A DNA stretch of 64,000 nt from Candidatus Saccharimonadales bacterium (GTDB taxonomy: Bacteria; Patescibacteriota; Saccharimonadia; Saccharimonadales; Saccharimonadaceae). Positions 5,987 to 22,800 of this stretch are shown here, one piece after another; position 1 is the first letter of the stretch; each line of letters starts with the position of its first letter. The notes under the pieces are model-generated. The model made no database searches. It was not told the DNA's origin and worked only from the letters and a program-made list of their open reading frames with translations. Location of the stretch: positions 285 to 64,284 of the forward strand of contig JBAQEV010000017.1 in the NCBI GenBank assembly GCA_049286925.1. Reading direction: 5' to 3'. Both the position numbers and the translations under genes were made by a program.

Positions 5987-6516
5987 TTCTTTACTCCTCT
6001 TTTTAATTTAGTTTTAGAAACTGCCTTTTTGGTAGCTTTATAAACCCTGTAGGTCCAATAACCCAGCCAAATCATCATCAATCCAAGCAATGCAAGCATT
6101 GCCCAGGTTGATAGTCCGGATTTTGCATCAAACGCCGACGCATTCATCTCGTACGTGATGTACGCGAAAAGCACGCTAATAAACAGTACTGTTCCTGTCA
6201 GCATTATGCGAATCATATCAAAAGCATTGTCGCGTTGTTTTTTGCCCAGTGCCATCAACCACATAGTTGTAGGAATATTTGAATATTGCGGTTTGTGATA
6301 CAGAAAAGCAAAACCCGCCAGCATCAAGGTCTGGATGACAGGCATTAAAAAGACATTGAATAGCGATTTGTCAGCCCAGCCATTGGGAAGACCATCGATT
6401 CCAAAGTGTACAGGAATGAACGCTGGCAACTTGTCCCAGTAATAAGCCGCTGTCATCCAACTGACTACAGCCAGTATAAATGCTATGAAGAAGATTATTT
6501 TGTGCTTTTGTTTCAT
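5983..6516 (-). CDS. DUF1648/SdpI-like membrane protein
   Basis: Motif YYWDKLPAFIPVHFGIDGLPNGWADKS plus 4 TM helices. I chose the ATG at 6516 because of the GGGAGGG RBS. Its stop overlaps the cupin start (ATGA). Confidence 0.7.
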   Translation of the reverse strand: MKQKHKIIFFIAFILAVVSWMTAAYYWDKLPAFIPVHFGIDGLPNGWADKSLFNVFLMPVIQTLMLAGFAFLYHKPQYSNIPTTMWLMALGKKQRDNAFDMIRIMLTGTVLFISVLFAYITYEMNASAFDAKSGLSTWAMLALLGLMMIWLGYWTYRVYKATKKAVSKTKLKRGVKK

Positions 6517-6623
6517 ATACCCTCCCGATACTTCTATTATATGCCAACTGCGCAAATATCGCCAAAAACAGATATAATTTGGTATAATAAGTCGCGTAGC
6601 ACGCCCAACCAATATCCAATTAC

Positions 6624-15156: not shown

Positions 15157-15178
15157 GTTATCGAACTTGTTCGATAAC
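15157..15178. promoter_or_regulatory. Perfect 10-bp inverted repeat GTTATCGAAC-TT-GTTCGATAAC, 25 nt upstream of tRNA-Pro
   Basis: Read directly from the sequence. It coincides with the stop codon of the recombinase ORF on the other strand. Confidence 0.35.
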
Positions 15179-17086
15179 GAACAAAAAGGCGAGTTCCGAC
15201 GACGGGGTGTGGCGCAGTTGATCGCGCGCGCGGTTTGGGACCGTGAGGTCGAAGGTTTGAGTCCTTTCACCCCGACCAGTAGATATTTCGTCTAAATCCG
15301 TCATCAAATTGTATGGCGGATTTAGCTTTATAACAGAGGTAGAATCATTTCCAACACGTAGGTTCGCAATAAACTCATTGCATATAGTATCCAGAACCAT
15401 GATGTCAGTCGTTTTTAGCATAGTTAACACCTTAGAACGTGTGAGTTCGTAGAATTGTTTCTCAGTAGGTAGTGCTATATCAAGTTTAGCTAGTTCAGCC
15501 TTATTGCTAACCATAGCTTCTTCATCAAGGCGTATCAGTTGTTGGTACTCTTCTAACTTGCCCTCATGGTACTTCTTGTAATCATCAGGACTGTTTACTT
15601 GGAACTCTTGATAACGTGCATACTGCTGTTCGTTATTCTTTTGTGACTGCTTAGCCTCAGCAAGCTTACGTTGTAGTATAGCCCTATCGGAAGCAATGTG
15701 TTGCTCAAGGCTGTTGATGTATATGCGGTATGCTTGCTCACTCTTTTTAGTTAAGTGACGTAGTTGCCATTCAATACCTGCTAGTACGAACTTACCACGA
15801 ATACTCTTAGAGAGTTTGATGTTGAGATTTTTCTGCTCTGTCTCATTGTGTCGTAAACAAGCCTTATTACGACAGTAGAAACTAATAACCCATTTGCCAG
15901 CATTTTTACCACGCTTAAGTGGTGTGTGTTGAAACCTCATAGTGTTATCACAGTAATCACAGATAACTTTATTATGTAGTAACCCATAGTCTAATCTTTG
16001 TGAACGGTTAGTTTTTACGCTTGTCGTTCTACCAAAATCTTTAGCAATATCGGCGTTTAGCTGTATGTACTCATCTGCTGTTATTAAAGGCTTAAAGTTA
16101 TACAAGTCTACGAGGTTTGCGAGGTTATCTCCGTAGCTGTATAAACCAGAGTAAAACGAATCTGCAAAGATGTTGCCAACCATTTGCTTAGTAACCTTTA
16201 TTAGCTTTGGCTTGTCGTCTTGGTCTTTACGTTCAGTGAGTTTTACGCTATTCAAAAACTCTGCAATATCTGTGTTATTCATGTCCCCATACAACCTCAT
16301 ATCTACTGCCTGACGTAGAACATTCCAGTTATATTCATCAGGGGTAAAGTATCCAGTAGTAGAGTCCACATAGTAGCCTTTCTTCACTACACCGTTATAC
16401 TTACCCTCTACGATATTACCGACAGTACCACGCTTCACATCAACCGCTAGTTTATCCGAGTATTGCTTAGAAGTAGCAAACAATATACCGAGCATCATCT
16501 TCCCATTTGGCGAATTGTCGAACTGATACGTAACAAATGCAAGGTCTTGAATCTCTTCATCGTCAATCATTTCTATGACTTCACCAGCTTCTTTCATGTT
16601 GCGAGATAGACGGTCAGGAGACCACGATATAAGCCCATGATATTTACCAGTCTTAAAACCAAGTAGCATTGTGTCAAAGATTGGACGATTACCAGAGGTT
16701 TTAGCAGAGGCACTTTCAACAAATATGTCTTCATCACGGATAAAAACCTCTAGGTGTTTTGCTTTTCTCAGACACTCAGTACGTTGGTCATCTAGTGAGC
16801 GTACTTGCTTAGCCTCATCATCAGTAGACTTACGTAGATATATAGCGTAACGGCGTTTTTCTTTTGGTAGTATTTTTTTAGCACCCTCTGTTGTAGCAGA
16901 GAAGTAATTTAGCAGGTCATTGACACTACGTTCACTGCTCCCGAAGGCTTTATTACGGTACTCAGATGTATATAGGTGCTGTTCTTGTACACTTGCAAGC
17001 TCAGCCTCATCTGCGAGAACTTTAGTGCGTTTTTTGCGATTAGTTGTACCTTTTGGCATATAGTTATTCCTACTAATATTGTACAA
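15158..17086 (-). CDS. Large serine recombinase (resolvase domain, recombinase domain, zinc ribbon)
   Basis: YAIYLRKSTDDE...SLDDQ catalytic Ser region, SWSPDRLSRN, and the Cys pairs CDYCDN...FYCRNKAC. The last ~40 codons are antisense to tRNA-Pro. Confidence 0.9.
   Translation of the reverse strand: MYNISRNNYMPKGTTNRKKRTKVLADEAELASVQEQHLYTSEYRNKAFGSSERSVNDLLNYFSATTEGAKKILPKEKRRYAIYLRKSTDDEAKQVRSLDDQRTECLRKAKHLEVFIRDEDIFVESASAKTSGNRPIFDTMLLGFKTGKYHGLISWSPDRLSRNMKEAGEVIEMIDDEEIQDLAFVTYQFDNSPNGKMMLGILFATSKQYSDKLAVDVKRGTVGNIVEGKYNGVVKKGYYVDSTTGYFTPDEYNWNVLRQAVDMRLYGDMNNTDIAEFLNSVKLTERKDQDDKPKLIKVTKQMVGNIFADSFYSGLYSYGDNLANLVDLYNFKPLITADEYIQLNADIAKDFGRTTSVKTNRSQRLDYGLLHNKVICDYCDNTMRFQHTPLKRGKNAGKWVISFYCRNKACLRHNETEQKNLNIKLSKSIRGKFVLAGIEWQLRHLTKKSEQAYRIYINSLEQHIASDRAILQRKLAEAKQSQKNNEQQYARYQEFQVNSPDDYKKYHEGKLEEYQQLIRLDEEAMVSNKAELAKLDIALPTEKQFYELTRSKVLTMLKTTDIMVLDTICNEFIANLRVGNDSTSVIKLNPPYNLMTDLDEISTGRGERTQTFDLTVPNRARDQLRHTPSSELAFLFVIEQVR
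15203..15278 (+). tRNA. tRNA-Pro (TGG)
   Basis: Acceptor CGGGGTG/CACCCCG, anticodon stem CGCGG/CCGTG with loop TTTGGGA, T-arm GAAGG-TTTGAGT-CCTTT and CCA. Length 76 nt. Confidence 0.9.
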
Positions 17087-17301: not shown

Positions 17302-17859
17302 ATGACAAAAAAGAAAGATGACTACATGGCGACCAACTCACAAGTCATGCTTGCCACTACCAAGCCGTATATCGCTGGTGCAAAAATCCAATTAGAGCGT
17401 TATCTAGAAGCACAAAGAATAATGAAAACTCACAAGATGGTTTTGGGCGGTGGAATAGATAAATGTACATATGAACTATCTGCACTGCTAGAACATTTAG
17501 ACAGCATAGAGGTGCAGCTAAGAAACAGAGGCATAACGTTGCCGACAGGTGAAATAATTCGACAATTCCGTAATCATTTACGACATGATGGTAGAGGCGA
17601 AAAAGACCGTAGCAATGGCAAACGAGGTCAGGCAATAGGCTTGAATGATAAACTACTGGTACATATAGGTTTTACTGATAGTGGTGTAAAGATGGGTTCA
17701 GTTGTACTAACTGCCCAACAGATAGATACATACATTACGACCGCCGAAACAATAATGTGGGCACTAGTGTTGGGTGGCAAGCTAGAGATTAACGGTGAAA
17801 CAGTGACCGTCTATCAACAACCTACAGACATAACCACTAAAAACACCCCAGAGGCGTAA
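17302..17859 (+). CDS. Hypothetical protein with an RNxxxH (HEPN-type) motif
   Basis: RNHLRH at residues 90-95 (nt 17569..17586). The TAATG stop/start overlaps the next gene. Confidence 0.6.
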   Translation: MTKKKDDYMATNSQVMLATTKPYIAGAKIQLERYLEAQRIMKTHKMVLGGGIDKCTYELSALLEHLDSIEVQLRNRGITLPTGEIIRQFRNHLRHDGRGEKDRSNGKRGQAIGLNDKLLVHIGFTDSGVKMGSVVLTAQQIDTYITTAETIMWALVLGGKLEINGETVTVYQQPTDITTKNTPEA

Positions 17860-18734
17860 TGGACAGTCTATTTAATAGCAGAGAGATTGCTACTGGACTA
17901 TGGCTGGTAGCACTGATAATCTTTGCTTCACGCTTCAAAGTAGTGCGTTCATCAATTGTGGATGTCCTTAAAGCATTATTCACGCCAAAACTGATTATAC
18001 CGTTACTTATATCATTTATTCCGACTACTGTGGTTGTCCTTGTGCTAGCTTATTTTGATTTGTGGGACATGTCTGTATTAAAAGAAACGATTTATTGGGT
18101 CATCGGTACTGGACTCGTAATGTTCGGTAGTTTCACTGACGTTAAAAGTGTTAAGGCACTGTACAAAAAGACAGCAAAAGACACGCTAGCATTGATTGTT
18201 GTGCTTGAGTTCCTGATTTGGTTTTATGTATTTCCACTGTGGGCTGAACTATTGTTCGTGCCGTTCGTGACCCTGCTTGTCTTATTAACGACAATGGCAC
18301 AATACATGAAGACAGAAGGCATCGACCTAACACGCAAGGTCTTAAACGGGGTTCAGGTATTTGTGGGATTGGTGATATTAATGTTTGTGATGGTAGCACT
18401 TATAAAAGACCCGAGACCGCTATTCACGTATCAGAACCTAGAGTTGTTCTTGTTGCCTCTAGTTTTGTCGTTCACATATGCACCCTCTGTGTACCTACTA
18501 GCCCTGTACAGCAAGTATGAGCTAGCTTTTAACCGTATAAACCACTTTACGACTCTAAGCAAAAAAGATAAAAATGCTATCAAATGGGCTACCATCAAAC
18601 GCTGTGGTTTAAGTGTGTCTGTAACGGGTGAGATAATACGACACTTAGCAATAAACCTAAGCAACGACACTACAAAGGCTCAAGCCCTGAAGCTTGTAAG
18701 AAACTTTGACCCGAAACAACCGTCGTTCCTATAG
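17859..18734 (+). CDS. Polytopic membrane protein (about 7-8 TM)
   Basis: Hydrophobic throughout. Translationally coupled to 17302..17859. Confidence 0.65.
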   Translation: MDSLFNSREIATGLWLVALIIFASRFKVVRSSIVDVLKALFTPKLIIPLLISFIPTTVVVLVLAYFDLWDMSVLKETIYWVIGTGLVMFGSFTDVKSVKALYKKTAKDTLALIVVLEFLIWFYVFPLWAELLFVPFVTLLVLLTTMAQYMKTEGIDLTRKVLNGVQVFVGLVILMFVMVALIKDPRPLFTYQNLELFLLPLVLSFTYAPSVYLLALYSKYELAFNRINHFTTLSKKDKNAIKWATIKRCGLSVSVTGEIIRHLAINLSNDTTKAQALKLVRNFDPKQPSFL

Positions 18735-19181
18735 CCTAGAAAATACCTAACTTTGTTAGAAACGCCCCTAGACTTGATTCATTTTTTACGTTTTTATTTG
18801 CAAAACGTACTAATACTCAACTTTCAATTTTAGACGCAAAATAATTGACGAACATACTATAAAAAACGGCAAAAAACACGCTTTTATATGCGAGATGGGT
18901 ATAACATCAACTTTTGACTTAGGACGAGAGTTTTGCGTTTTGGCTCAGGGGTGAGAAATTGCAAAACGGCATGTTTTCGAGGCTACTTGTTGTATAATAA
19001 TGCCATAGACCTAAACCAGACATATGTTTGGCATGGTCTCAAATCATCAAGAAGAAACAGCTCGTCGTGAGTACTTCTTCTTGATGTTACTACTGGAAAC
19101 GGTGGTAGGTAGCTTCGGCTATCGCTCATGGCGGGCTTTTTAGTTTGCCTGAGATACTACTAACCCGTGGAGAATCTACCA

Positions 19182-19951: not shown

Positions 19952-20728
19952 ATGAAAATCACACACCACCTAGGACGATTCACTACATTCTTCAAGGAGA
20001 GCAGTCTTGTTATACAGCTAGTAATTGTAACTTCTGCTATTGGCATTATTGCAGGAACTGCGACAGTTGCAGCGATGGTAGTAACACCAAACAATAACGA
20101 AGGCTCAACCAATAGCACGACTAGCGAAAGTAGTGATGTTGCAAGCGATACCGTTAGTCAACAATCTACAAGTAATGAAGATGAACAGACAACAGATACT
20201 GACTCTGCTACAGCTACACCACAGGCAAACGAGACTACACCACAGAACAACGCACAGCAGAATACGCCCCAAGACTCTAGCAACAATAGCAAGCCAGAGA
20301 CACAGCCTCAGACACCCGCACAGCCTACTTACACAGACTCTTATTCGTTTAAGGCAAACTGCTCAAGTAGCCCACAGCAAACAAGCACACAAATGGACTC
20401 ATGGGGCTATAACAAATGCTATAGCTCAAGCTATACAGCATGGAAGGTTCAAGAGAAGTTTGGCACAGCACCTCTCAACTGGGGAGACCCTAAGAACTGG
20501 TTACAAGCAGCTGACAATGCGAATATCTCAAGAGGTACTACTGCTAAGCTGCATTCAGTAGGTATACAGACAACTGGCGGTGCTGGTTGGTCTGTATGGA
20601 TTGAAGCAGTTAATAACGATGGAACAGTAGATATAAGCTACTACAACTTCAACAATAATCTAGCTTACGGTAAACAATATAGTGTTAGTCCATCTGTATT
20701 TAATAGCTACATCTACTTTGGTGAATAG
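19952..20728 (+). CDS. Membrane-anchored protein with a T/S/Q/P-rich linker and a CHAP-like C-terminal domain
   Basis: The C-terminus resembles the CHAP layout (NKCYSSSYTAWKV ... WGDPKNWLQAA ... GGAGWSVWIEAVNNDGTVDISYYN). The expected GHVA His position reads GWSV. Confidence 0.55.
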   Translation: MKITHHLGRFTTFFKESSLVIQLVIVTSAIGIIAGTATVAAMVVTPNNNEGSTNSTTSESSDVASDTVSQQSTSNEDEQTTDTDSATATPQANETTPQNNAQQNTPQDSSNNSKPETQPQTPAQPTYTDSYSFKANCSSSPQQTSTQMDSWGYNKCYSSSYTAWKVQEKFGTAPLNWGDPKNWLQAADNANISRGTTAKLHSVGIQTTGGAGWSVWIEAVNNDGTVDISYYNFNNNLAYGKQYSVSPSVFNSYIYFGE

Positions 20729-20959: not shown

Positions 20960-21592
20960 TTACGATACTTTTTTAGGCGGTGTTAAATCCCAGTATTCAC
21001 ACATGTGCTCAAACAGGTATTTTGCAAAGAAGCTGTCACGTTGTTCGGTAGCTATAAGCAAGACCTCGAGTCGAATTAGTTCTTCTGCGATTGTTTGGGT
21101 TTTCTCCTTCGTTTCCAAGTTCTGCGTAAAGAGATTGTGGATGATTTGATTTCTATTCTTTATAAAATTGCTTAACTGTTGTAGGTAGTCTTGGTACTTC
21201 TGCTCACTAGCATCGTCAGTGTAACGGAAAAGCTTGAGGGCTATTAGTTTAGTACCAAGCGTTAAGTCTGCAAAACCAATAGTCTTACCGTTCCGCTTAA
21301 AATTATTTGCGATTTTACCTGAAGCCTTCTCGCCGACTACATGTGGGTTAGGCTGACCACTTGTAACTGCAACCCTGTCGTAGAAGTCGTTAAGTGCACG
21401 TTCAAGCCATTGAGTTTTTATATTGAATAGACAGATAAGTTTAGTTAGCCCATCCATATTTGAGTCATTAATGTCCTTAGTGAATTTCTTATATAGTTCG
21501 TCTGCTTCTGCATATAAACGGTATTTCTTATCCATTGCCGTTTCTGGGTGAGATGACACGTAAGGAATGTCTAGTCTGTTTTCATCAATCAT
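20960..21592 (-). CDS. Hypothetical protein with an RNxxxH (HEPN-type) motif
   Basis: RNQIIH at residues 147-152 (nt 21137..21154). I chose the ATG at 21592 because it forms an ATGA overlap with the upstream gene. Confidence 0.6.
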   Translation of the reverse strand: MIDENRLDIPYVSSHPETAMDKKYRLYAEADELYKKFTKDINDSNMDGLTKLICLFNIKTQWLERALNDFYDRVAVTSGQPNPHVVGEKASGKIANNFKRNGKTIGFADLTLGTKLIALKLFRYTDDASEQKYQDYLQQLSNFIKNRNQIIHNLFTQNLETKEKTQTIAEELIRLEVLLIATEQRDSFFAKYLFEHMCEYWDLTPPKKVS

Positions 21593-22152
21593 TGTTTTAA
21601 GCCAAGTTTGAGTGCAATAAATAGGACTAGTAAAGATGACGCAACACCAAGCACGAATCCTACCAAGACCTGCACCCACTTAAAGCTCCTGTCTGAAATT
21701 AAGTGTTTATGTGTTCCGTAGCGACTCTTATACTCCTGAGAAATTCCACGCATCTCCATGAGCGTATATAGGTTATCTCTAATTCCACCCTCTATAATCT
21801 CTCGCTTTCTGAAAAGGTCAGGGTTTACTTCACGGATATGATTGCTATCGGGGAATTTCCAAGCTTGACCACACTCAAGTACATGACCAGACATTTCGCT
21901 ACCAATCGTCTGCATGTTTTTAATCATGAGGGGGTGTGCACGCCTTCGCTTAAAACGCCACATCTTCCAAGTACTAAATACGTCCTCCTTAGCTCTTTTT
22001 GCGAGACCTTCAGTTCTCCGCATACGCATATCTACATCAACTGTATGCTCCCCAAGTTTACGAAAATCTTGGATTTGGCGAAGCATTTGTTTGTTCCACT
22101 TTTTGAGTGAATCTAGTTCTTCAAATAGTTCTTTTTTGGTATAGTCTTTCAT
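21589..22152 (-). CDS. Hypothetical protein with a C-terminal TM anchor
   Basis: Charged helical N-terminal part and a C-terminal helix WVQVLVGFVLGVASSLLVLFIALKL. Coupled to 20960..21592. Confidence 0.55.
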   Translation of the reverse strand: MKDYTKKELFEELDSLKKWNKQMLRQIQDFRKLGEHTVDVDMRMRRTEGLAKRAKEDVFSTWKMWRFKRRRAHPLMIKNMQTIGSEMSGHVLECGQAWKFPDSNHIREVNPDLFRKREIIEGGIRDNLYTLMEMRGISQEYKSRYGTHKHLISDRSFKWVQVLVGFVLGVASSLLVLFIALKLGLKQ

Positions 22153-22614: not shown

Positions 22615-22654
22615 AAATAAAAAAGACCATCCGTAAGGATAGTCTTTTTTATTT
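22615..22654. terminator. Strong bidirectional terminator (17 of 18 bp stem, GTAA loop)
   Basis: AAATAAAAAAGACCATCC-GTAA-GGATAGTCTTTTTTATTT. Confidence 0.75.
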
Positions 22655-22655
22655 G

Positions 22656-22800
22656 GACCGCCGGGTGGCAGGCCTCAAACCTTCGACTTTTTGTCAAAGA
22701 CAAAAATAGTCGGAGGTTTGGCGTAGCGCCATGCAGCAAAATTAGTTTACTCATTTTGCAAACAAGCGGAGGAGCCGCAGGCGATGTCCTTTCGCTCTCC
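22656..22800 (-). other. GC-rich structured region with a ~50-bp imperfect palindrome carrying an inverted copy of the tRNA-Pro T-arm
   Basis: 22674..22687 (CTCAAACCTTCGAC) is the exact reverse complement of tRNA-Pro 15248..15261. This 14-mer forms one arm of the long hairpin 22672..22722. The ends pair (GGAC-CGCC with GGCG-GTCC), and the region lies directly upstream (minus strand) of the 22615..22654 terminator. Confidence 0.45.

Follow-up and report, generated by a model that had tools for sequence, protein, structure and literature searches.

Patescibacteria (the candidate phyla radiation, CPR) have tiny genomes in which few defence systems have been recognised, and culturing them is difficult; a literature search on defence systems of Saccharibacteria found nothing relevant. 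A 64,000-nucleotide stretch from a Candidatus Saccharimonadales bacterium (contig JBAQEV010000017.1, positions 285 to 64,284; hereafter the window) raises the question of whether two adjoining genes, called A and B here, form such a system. A reading of the sequence alone had taken A for a HEPN-type RNase because of its Rx4H motif, and the pair for a candidate abortive-infection (Abi) or toxin-antitoxin system carried as cargo by a mobile island. The genes are laid out as follows:

17302 to 17859, + strand: gene A (open reading frame, ORF, A), a soluble protein of 185 amino acids (aa).
17569 to 17586, + strand: RNHLRH motif of A (R90-H95; CGT AAT CAT TTA CGA CAT), the candidate catalytic Rx4H.
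17859 to 18734, + strand: gene B (ORF B), a membrane protein of 291 aa.

The motif lies in the 185-aa ORF exactly where the sequence-only reading had placed it, and the overlap that it reported between the two genes reads GCG TAATG GAC, the TAA stop of A and the ATG start of B sharing one base. The GC content of A and B is 0.41-0.42, the window mean being 0.42, and NCBI entries for identical proteins carry names that point to Candidatus Saccharimonadales. The answer favoured here, held tentatively and with somewhat less than even confidence, is that A and B form a defence or addiction module, in which a HEPN-like RNase is joined by a promiscuous, unnamed partner of the seven-transmembrane (7TM) type that is associated with defence.

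Taken alone, the RNHLRH motif is weak evidence: in shuffles of the composition of A, Rx4-6H arises in 56% and R[NDH]xxxH in 3%. It is more than a chance occurrence, however, because R90, H95 and D96 are invariant in homologues down to 22% identity. R90 and H95 do not vary in 25 close homologues, and G26, R33, E58, L62 and E64 join R90, H95 and D96 as invariant positions in 31 diverse homologues, in which Y34, A37, C55, S60, L66, H92, R94, R98, R108 and G132 are at least 90% conserved. This bears out the conservation among homologues on which the sequence-only reading depended. Most of the 31 have N, D or H directly after R90 (N91 in the window), and a few have T or R. The ratio of non-synonymous to synonymous divergence (dN/dS) of A, 0.04-0.08, indicates strong purifying selection. 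The family comprises 39 close clusters and 50 more distant representatives at 50% clustering, and a genome scan placed its members in Roizman-, Levy-, Moran- and Shapirobacteria, in Saccharibacteria and in two bins labelled otherwise; it is restricted to Patescibacteria and unnamed. A tblastn search of GenBank phages with A gave no match.

In the HEPN fold, a four-helix up-down bundle, the motif is located where helix 3 ends or where the loop between helices 3 and 4 begins, its R is usually followed by N, D or H, and a conserved acidic residue occurs in helix 2 (PMC3710099). The AlphaFold model of A (predicted local distance difference test score, pLDDT, 76; predicted template-modelling score, pTM, 0.73) has long helices at residues 13-43, 50-74 and 81-96, the third of which is closed by RNHLRH. 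An insert follows the motif (a short helix and three strands, pLDDT 57-68), and then a helix at 138-157 and a C-terminal hairpin. The invariant E58 and E64 fall in predicted helix 2, and the modelled order of secondary-structure elements fits the HEPN topology. HEPN RNases cut without a metal and leave 2',3'-cyclic phosphate ends. A would most likely be a divergent, metal-independent HEPN-type RNase with R90 and H95 as its catalytic pair, probably brought together across a dimer interface and assisted by N91 and the helix-2 acids E58 and E64.

The same conserved residues could instead belong to a metal-dependent hydrolase with an HD-like or other His/Asp/Glu site. A metal could be bound by H92, H95, D96, E58, E64 and H/D65, H65 lies about 30 residues from H95-D96, a distance that recalls H...HD, and the lack of any HEPN profile or fold match for A (see below) counts in the same direction. 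This explanation is hardly probable at all, since A has no Pfam HD match, position 65 varies (H, D or N), and no conserved downstream Asp or His would complete an HD site, while R-[N/D/H]-x3-H closing helix 3 is the specific HEPN signature.

The product of gene B contains six to seven hydrophobic helices, and then a basic, helical, soluble tail of about 70 aa; the polytopic protein of the first reading is thus confirmed, with fewer transmembrane helices than the 7-8 counted there. Positive-inside loop charges suggest an N-out/C-in orientation. R8, E9, W15, K75, E130 and G170 are invariant. No match to B was found in Pfam, NCBIfam or PADLOC. At E<=1, PADLOC-DB 2.0.0 left A and B unmatched, as well as 10 diverse homologues of B and 10 unannotated partners of B. 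Neither the A nor the B family is named or characterised.

Both genes belong to a mobile element, whose other backbone features in the window are:

15203 to 15278, + strand: tRNA-Pro(tgg), the probable integration site (ARAGORN; Rfam tRNA 56 bits).
15158 to 17086 (listed ORF), - strand: large serine recombinase (Pfam Resolvase E=1.3e-17).
17117 (ATG) to 17299, + strand: small HTH_17/MerR-type DNA-binding protein, excisionase- or regulator-like (Pfam HTH_17 E=3.4e-12).

The pair directly follows this recombinase/excisionase module, as first read, and the HTH_17 gene, ending 2 nt 5' of A, heads an HTH-A-B operon. The succession tRNA-Pro, serine recombinase (- strand), HTH_17, A and B is the backbone of an integrative element present in five genomes in Saccharimonadales, carried by a large serine recombinase at tRNA-Pro. 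Recombinase, HTH_17, A and B recur at the surveyed loci L005 (Ca. Saccharibacteria RAAC3_TM7_1), L033/34 and L119, and tblastn revealed HTH_17, A and B also at L035, with the recombinase truncated at the contig end. The tRNA-Pro adjoins the recombinase in the window, L005 and L034; none was called in L035, in a scan that left out L119. The recombinase is 84-90% identical to those of L005 and L119. The window and RAAC3 share about 90% identity in the recombinase and in A but only 65% in the flanking MurT and GatD, which fits horizontal mobility of the element. Across the elements, nucleotide identity amounts to 80-90% in the recombinase, HTH_17 and A and to 65-73% in B, and drops to noise straight after the B stop. 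Because homology between elements ends directly after B, the pair is part of the conserved backbone and not the variable cargo for which it had been taken. The genes 3' of B differ: in RAAC3 one encodes a helicase-MTES protein of 1,294 aa and another is TIR-like, and L034 has a MauJ-like gene.

The tRNA-Pro abuts the 3' end of the recombinase gene. On the - strand the recombinase ORF reads through the + strand tRNA-Pro, its last 30-40 listed codons being tRNA or attachment-site (att) sequence. Within 15158..15278 lies either the true stop or the junction of integration, given that the listed ORF extends into the tRNA; the true 3' end is probably near 15279. A search for the right-hand att as a direct repeat of the tRNA-Pro gave only a 14-nt inverted match at 22674, which leaves the right boundary of the element undefined. 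This exact match to the T arm of tRNA-Pro is part of a tRNA-like T-arm fragment with a partial tRNA-like 3' half (about 22620..22740, - strand), where ARAGORN and Rfam called no tRNA; the fragment could have been left by another integration event, or it could mark an island boundary. A full-length Rfam LOOT RNA (RF03000; 82 bits against a gathering score of 46, E=9e-15) was also located at 19008..19123 (+ strand), within the 430 nt that separate B from the next ORF, with a terminator-like hairpin behind it at 19122..19134. Backbone homology among the elements stops before the LOOT RNA.

The proximity of A and the recombinase could mean that A is a non-nuclease accessory of the serine recombinase (a directionality factor or excision regulator) and B an element-maintenance or entry-exclusion protein. 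About 10 of about 20 distinct loci of A, roughly half, have a large serine recombinase within a few kb, and they come from several classes of Patescibacteria; A is directly downstream of it on the same strand in L015 and L018; both A and B lie in the conserved backbone beside the recombinase and HTH_17; and a gut-metagenome clade of B stands 182 nt downstream of a serine recombinase. Serine integrases have directionality factors that are mutually unrelated and can have enzyme-like folds. This explanation is nevertheless improbable. No recombinase occurs within 5-6 kb of A at L117, L012, L014, L017 or L021-L026, the invariant R, H, D and E residues of A look catalytic, the HTH_17 protein is already the Xis-like candidate, and most relatives of B adjoin defence genes, not recombinases.

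Homologues of A have as neighbours Shedu SduA, type I HsdR, serine recombinases and a weak Mrr match. Directly downstream of A homologues are found a 291-aa Zn-ribbon protein with RHKEQH (L118, 5565..6440) and a 257-aa protein with RDSFSH (L015, 1771..2544), both lacking a Pfam HEPN match. In oral and host-associated Saccharibacteria (Nanosynbacter-type bins, L021-L026, about 5989..6549), a distant A homologue occupies a conserved, apparently chromosomal context with no recombinase near it, where it follows an SPFH/band-7-like gene and the gene of an 82-aa membrane protein, near a D-Ala-D-Ala-ligase-like gene; these neighbours were identified by reading of the sequence.

A and B were found together at five distinct loci, with the 1-nt overlap kept in all five, so that the pair claimed for this genome does recur in four other places; as an obligate two-gene module it does not. 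The HTH_17 gene precedes A in all examined loci of its closest homologues (window, L005, L007/8, L033/34, L035 and L119) and is absent at L009, L117 and L118.

Several results weigh against a module of a HEPN RNase and its membrane partner. Regarding A, neither E58 nor E64 has K/R at +4, so the usual Ex3[K/R] context is absent. Comparisons of A with Pfam, PADLOC, PHROGs and NCBIfam gave zero HEPN matches, and the A-family profiles (A1, A2) had 0 matches among PDB sequences at E<=10. Foldseek searches with the model of A yielded nothing significant in PDB (best E=0.9) or in BFVD; the top matches were G-protein-coupled receptors and designed bundles with TM-scores <=0.35, and the closest toxin-antitoxin entry was 7bxo_G (E=2.8), which we take to be a HEPN-MNT structure. 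Regarding B, the structure model is only moderate (pLDDT 72, pTM 0.58), and Foldseek against PDB found no fold relatives (TM-scores about 0.15). Regarding the pair, the five A-B loci all represent one element lineage, and co-occurrence may therefore be due to shared ancestry and not to function. A stands without B at more than 20 loci, namely L007/8 (in the order tRNA-Asn, recombinase, HTH_17, A), L009, L117, L118 and all 17 distant loci (L010-L026). Conversely, close homologues of B (55-74% identical) occur without A at L036, where GmrSD_N+HNH precedes B, at L037, in the order reverse transcriptase (RVT_1 E=4.6e-13), MauJ-like gene and B, and at L038, where a 1,012-aa MmeI/Eco57I-type enzyme overlaps B by 4 nt. 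About 40 other clusters of B likewise lack A.

The sensitive profile and fold searches proposed as a check for a HEPN fold, made here with Pfam, PDB, PADLOC and Foldseek, were thus all negative. What persists of the HEPN-type RNase signature is an invariant motif in the helix-3 position, not profile or fold similarity to any HEPN family. As no such search ties A to that family, the name HEPN is inferred from motif and topology, for which it is the best reading, and HEPN membership of A is plausible but unproven. A Pfam scan of the 31 A-family members found no recurrent family and a single weak YaaC match (E=0.0056). YaaC was set aside as a link to HEPN, its clan membership being unconfirmed and YaaC going unmentioned in PMC3710099. 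By hhalign the A family is unrelated to the MauJ-like RNxxxH proteins (probability 0.1). The adjacent minimal nucleotidyltransferase (MNT) antitoxin that marks HEPN-MNT toxin-antitoxin systems of type II/VII is lacking: no nucleotidyltransferase domain was present in the ORFs scanned between 15 and 23.5 kb, and the neighbours of A are the HTH_17 gene and the membrane protein. An obligate A-B system is ruled out by the many A-only and B-only loci. Because each family also occurs without the other, the coupling of A and B is facultative. Cooperation of A and B nonetheless appears plausible within this element lineage, in which the pair is fixed behind HTH_17.

The B family is widespread. A metagenome scan with the B alignment identified 80 loci and 4 viral contigs, and in total 93 loci with a B homologue fall into 45 clusters at 90% identity. 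The proteins measure 243-803 aa, with a conserved 7TM part and variable C-terminal extensions. They come from Patescibacteria, Bacteroidota (Mucilaginibacter), human-gut metagenome contigs and plasmids of Arcobacter, Clostridium and, weakly, Salmonella. Four weak matches were obtained by tblastn against plasmids, annotated as 'hypothetical' or 'membrane protein', and a tblastn search of GenBank phages with a long B homologue gave no match. The Salmonella protein, WP_010989066.1 (L121; IncHI2 plasmid NZ_CP110658.1, 6031..7314), has 427 aa, is annotated as 'membrane protein', matches the B family weakly (E=6e-4, 25% identity over the transmembrane part) and is flanked by integrase-domain genes. 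It may be a tractable enterobacterial relative of B.

In about a dozen clusters the gap between B and the gene upstream is -29 to +5 nt. The upstream genes are diverse. Endonuclea_NS_2 overlaps B by 4 nt in two Mucilaginibacter species, on different islands with SIR2, HNH, AbiU2 and PLD genes. Mrr_cat occurs immediately upstream on the same strand; others include a weak RES match, an MmeI/Eco57I-type restriction-modification enzyme, GmrSD_N+HNH, N6_Mtase+Methylase_S, a weak HEPN_Apea match carrying RNAVEH, AIPR, DUF6602, a weak patatin match and an nSTAND-like NTPase. In a gut clade of 40 loci a serine recombinase lies upstream, B beginning 182 nt downstream of it. Downstream of B are found MmeI, HsdM and an OLD-like AAA_15+TOPRIM protein and, for one homologue on a viral contig, a phage tape-measure gene. 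Imm27 and Imm7 genes occur further along one B locus. MauJ-like proteins of 275 aa (Pfam MauJ E about 1e-9 to 1e-10) adjoin B in three Saccharimonadales-like contigs (L034 4890..5717, L038 4890..5717 and L037 1820..2647). They carry the motif I/V-R-[N/H]-x-S-A-H-F, of the RNxxxH type (RNKSAH), and may constitute another HEPN-like defence family; a literature search on MauJ with HEPN found nothing relevant.

A further explanation is that A and B are functionally independent and share only a transcript. On that view A would be an Abi- or toxin-like protein standing by itself, perhaps under the control of HTH_17 in the manner of a toxin-antitoxin system, and B a stand-alone membrane protein for defence or superinfection exclusion that tends to insert behind defence genes. 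Each family mostly occurs without the other, the partners of B include the self-sufficient MmeI-type restriction-modification enzymes and GmrSD-HNH, and some homologues of B are preceded by a spacer of about 180 nt of their own or stand alone, one of them by the tape-measure gene in the viral contig. HTH_17 precedes A even where B is missing (L007/8). In comparisons of the window with L005 and L119, the non-synonymous divergence of B exceeds that of A about four-fold (dN 0.20-0.26 against 0.05-0.07), and nucleotide identity drops exactly at the A/B junction, although synonymous divergence (dS) is saturated (1-2.5 or undefined), so that faster evolution of B and allele exchange are inseparable here. 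On the other hand, the stop/start overlap is kept in 5/5 A-B loci, the upstream genes that homologues of B overlap or all but touch (-29 to +5 nt) belong to at least seven further, unrelated families, which is unusual for unrelated systems, and distant A homologues lack HTH_17. Independence is considered unlikely, while deserving serious attention.

Another possibility is a toxin-immunity pair, with A as the toxin and B as its cognate membrane immunity protein or antitoxin, sequestering A. The translationally coupled order of toxin and then immunity gene resembles polymorphic-toxin loci, the upstream partners of B include the classic toxin domains Endonuclea_NS_2, RES and Mrr-type nucleases, and Imm27 and Imm7 genes follow one B locus, as stated above. 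This explanation is decidedly improbable, given that close A homologues (66-77% identity) exist without B, which would be intolerable for a toxin needing B, that homologues of B 72-74% identical to each other pair either with A or with an MmeI-type restriction-modification enzyme, and that restriction-modification enzymes bring their own protection. Many partners are self-sufficient, and near-identical B proteins take different partners, which makes a role of B as antitoxin to one particular partner unlikely; a generic accessory at the membrane (sensor or channel) or an independent membrane-level defence gene is the better description.

Returning to the favoured module of a HEPN-like RNase with a membrane partner, A would serve as a latent effector of abortive infection or addiction, cleaving RNA once it is triggered and able to work alone. 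B would be a 7TM-type protein, N-out/C-in with a cytoplasmic tail, from a family that appears to join many self-sufficient defence effectors, often by translational coupling. In this operon it would most likely be a membrane-level accessory, which could sense envelope perturbation and relay it via the cytoplasmic tail or, alternatively, add a membrane-depolarising arm. The candidacy as an abortive-infection or toxin-antitoxin system put forward at the outset is sustained by the mobile-element setting and the defence-type neighbours of both families, though not as an obligate pair nor through a HEPN profile link.

A broader proposal, rather more doubtful, is that the B family constitutes an unrecognised cross-phylum 7TM 'plug-in' immunity module with interchangeable effectors, A being a new Patescibacteria-specific HEPN clade that uses it. 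The conserved sensor or channel and its variable cytoplasmic tail would link envelope events to cytoplasmic nucleases, and the effectors would include HEPN-like RNases, Endonuclease_NS_2, Mrr, GmrSD-HNH, MmeI-type restriction-modification enzymes, AIPR and patatin-like proteins.

A second pair reported for the same region, an RNQIIH protein with a transmembrane protein, is indeed present at 20960..22152 (- strand). It consists of a 239-aa ORF with RNQIIH (20960..21679, - strand) and an ORF of 187 aa (21589..22152, - strand) that overlaps it by 91 nt and ends in a transmembrane helix. The RNQIIH ORF gave weak HEPN matches (Pfam RiboL-PSP-HEPN E=0.087; PADLOC Csx1/Csm6 E=0.002; phrog_9497 E=5.7e-5). 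Nearby, at 19952..20728 (+ strand), is encoded a 258-aa protein with an N-terminal transmembrane helix, a long low-complexity linker rich in S/T/Q/P and a weak C-terminal CHAP match (E=8e-4); its PADLOC match to PD-T4-6 (E=6.5e-6) covers the low-complexity part and is probably compositional.

A conserved, element-borne A-B module would add to the very few genes of Patescibacteria that are candidates for a role in immunity or addiction. The most interesting lead is the membrane family B with its many interchangeable partners. Occurrence of a conserved component beside many unrelated defence effectors across phyla, with interchangeable nucleases in defence islands and mobile elements, typically marks a defence component yet to be discovered, and it is on this account that B is read as a gene of a conflict system. 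Should B prove to be a general-purpose sensor or channel of the envelope, this would be relevant to the question of how infection is perceived at the membrane by defence systems.

That a HEPN protein with a membrane partner is not a named system agrees with the lack of PADLOC-DB 2.0.0 matches for A and B, but precedents for such an arrangement do exist in Cas13b-Csx27/Csx28 and in HEPN-transmembrane fusions. A itself resembles the HEPN single-gene Abi and toxin proteins (Abi2/AbiD/AbiF, AbiJ, AbiU2, ApeA, HepT and mycobacteriophage Butters gp57r) in being small and mostly helical, in having R-[N/D/H]-x3-H where helix 3 ends and an acid in helix 2 (PMC3710099), and in occurring on mobile elements beside defence genes, where it can be solo. 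Like Butters gp57r (bioRxiv 10.1101/2023.01.03.522681), it is recognised mainly by its motif, with weak profile support. It differs from these families by the absence of detectable profile or fold similarity and of an MNT partner, by its restriction to Patescibacteria, by the additional conserved H92, R94, D96 and R98, and by the short helix and beta-meander between the motif and the last helix.

Type VI-B systems (Cas13b-Csx27/Csx28) are alike in that a HEPN RNase gene adjoins that of a membrane protein modulating or amplifying defence; Csx28 is a Cas13b-activated membrane pore (bioRxiv 10.1101/2021.11.02.466367). Unlike Cas13b, A has no Cas13/Cas-type PADLOC match (CRISPR arrays were not searched for), and B differs from Csx27/28 in its 6-7 transmembrane helices, its lack of PADLOC similarity and its many non-HEPN partners. 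With 185 aa, A is also far smaller than Cas13b, which has about 1,100 aa.

Lambda RexAB and the mycobacteriophage systems Sbash gp30/31 and Butters gp30/31 likewise combine a soluble and a multi-transmembrane protein co-expressed from a mobile element, the proposed outcome being loss of membrane potential or exclusion (PMC6426596, PMC7542560, PMC12894663). A and B share no sequence similarity with them; those proteins are dedicated partners, whereas the B family swaps partners, and A carries a nuclease-type motif. The A-B pair can also be set beside Kiwa and Zorya, from whose components it differs in size and topology, with no PADLOC match to them, and in the dozens of alternative partners of the B family. 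Kiwa KwaA/KwaB and Zorya ZorAB with its nuclease join a polytopic membrane component to a cytoplasmic effector in defence islands. The HEPN-transmembrane fusions of the DUF4145 and Abi2/SWT1 types (PMC3710099) are single polypeptides with one or two transmembrane helices; here the two parts are encoded by two genes, with 6-7 helices in B. Both arrangements would tie a HEPN nuclease to the inner membrane, and for membrane-associated HEPN proteins the proposed logic leads from surface sensing to RNA degradation (PMC3710099).

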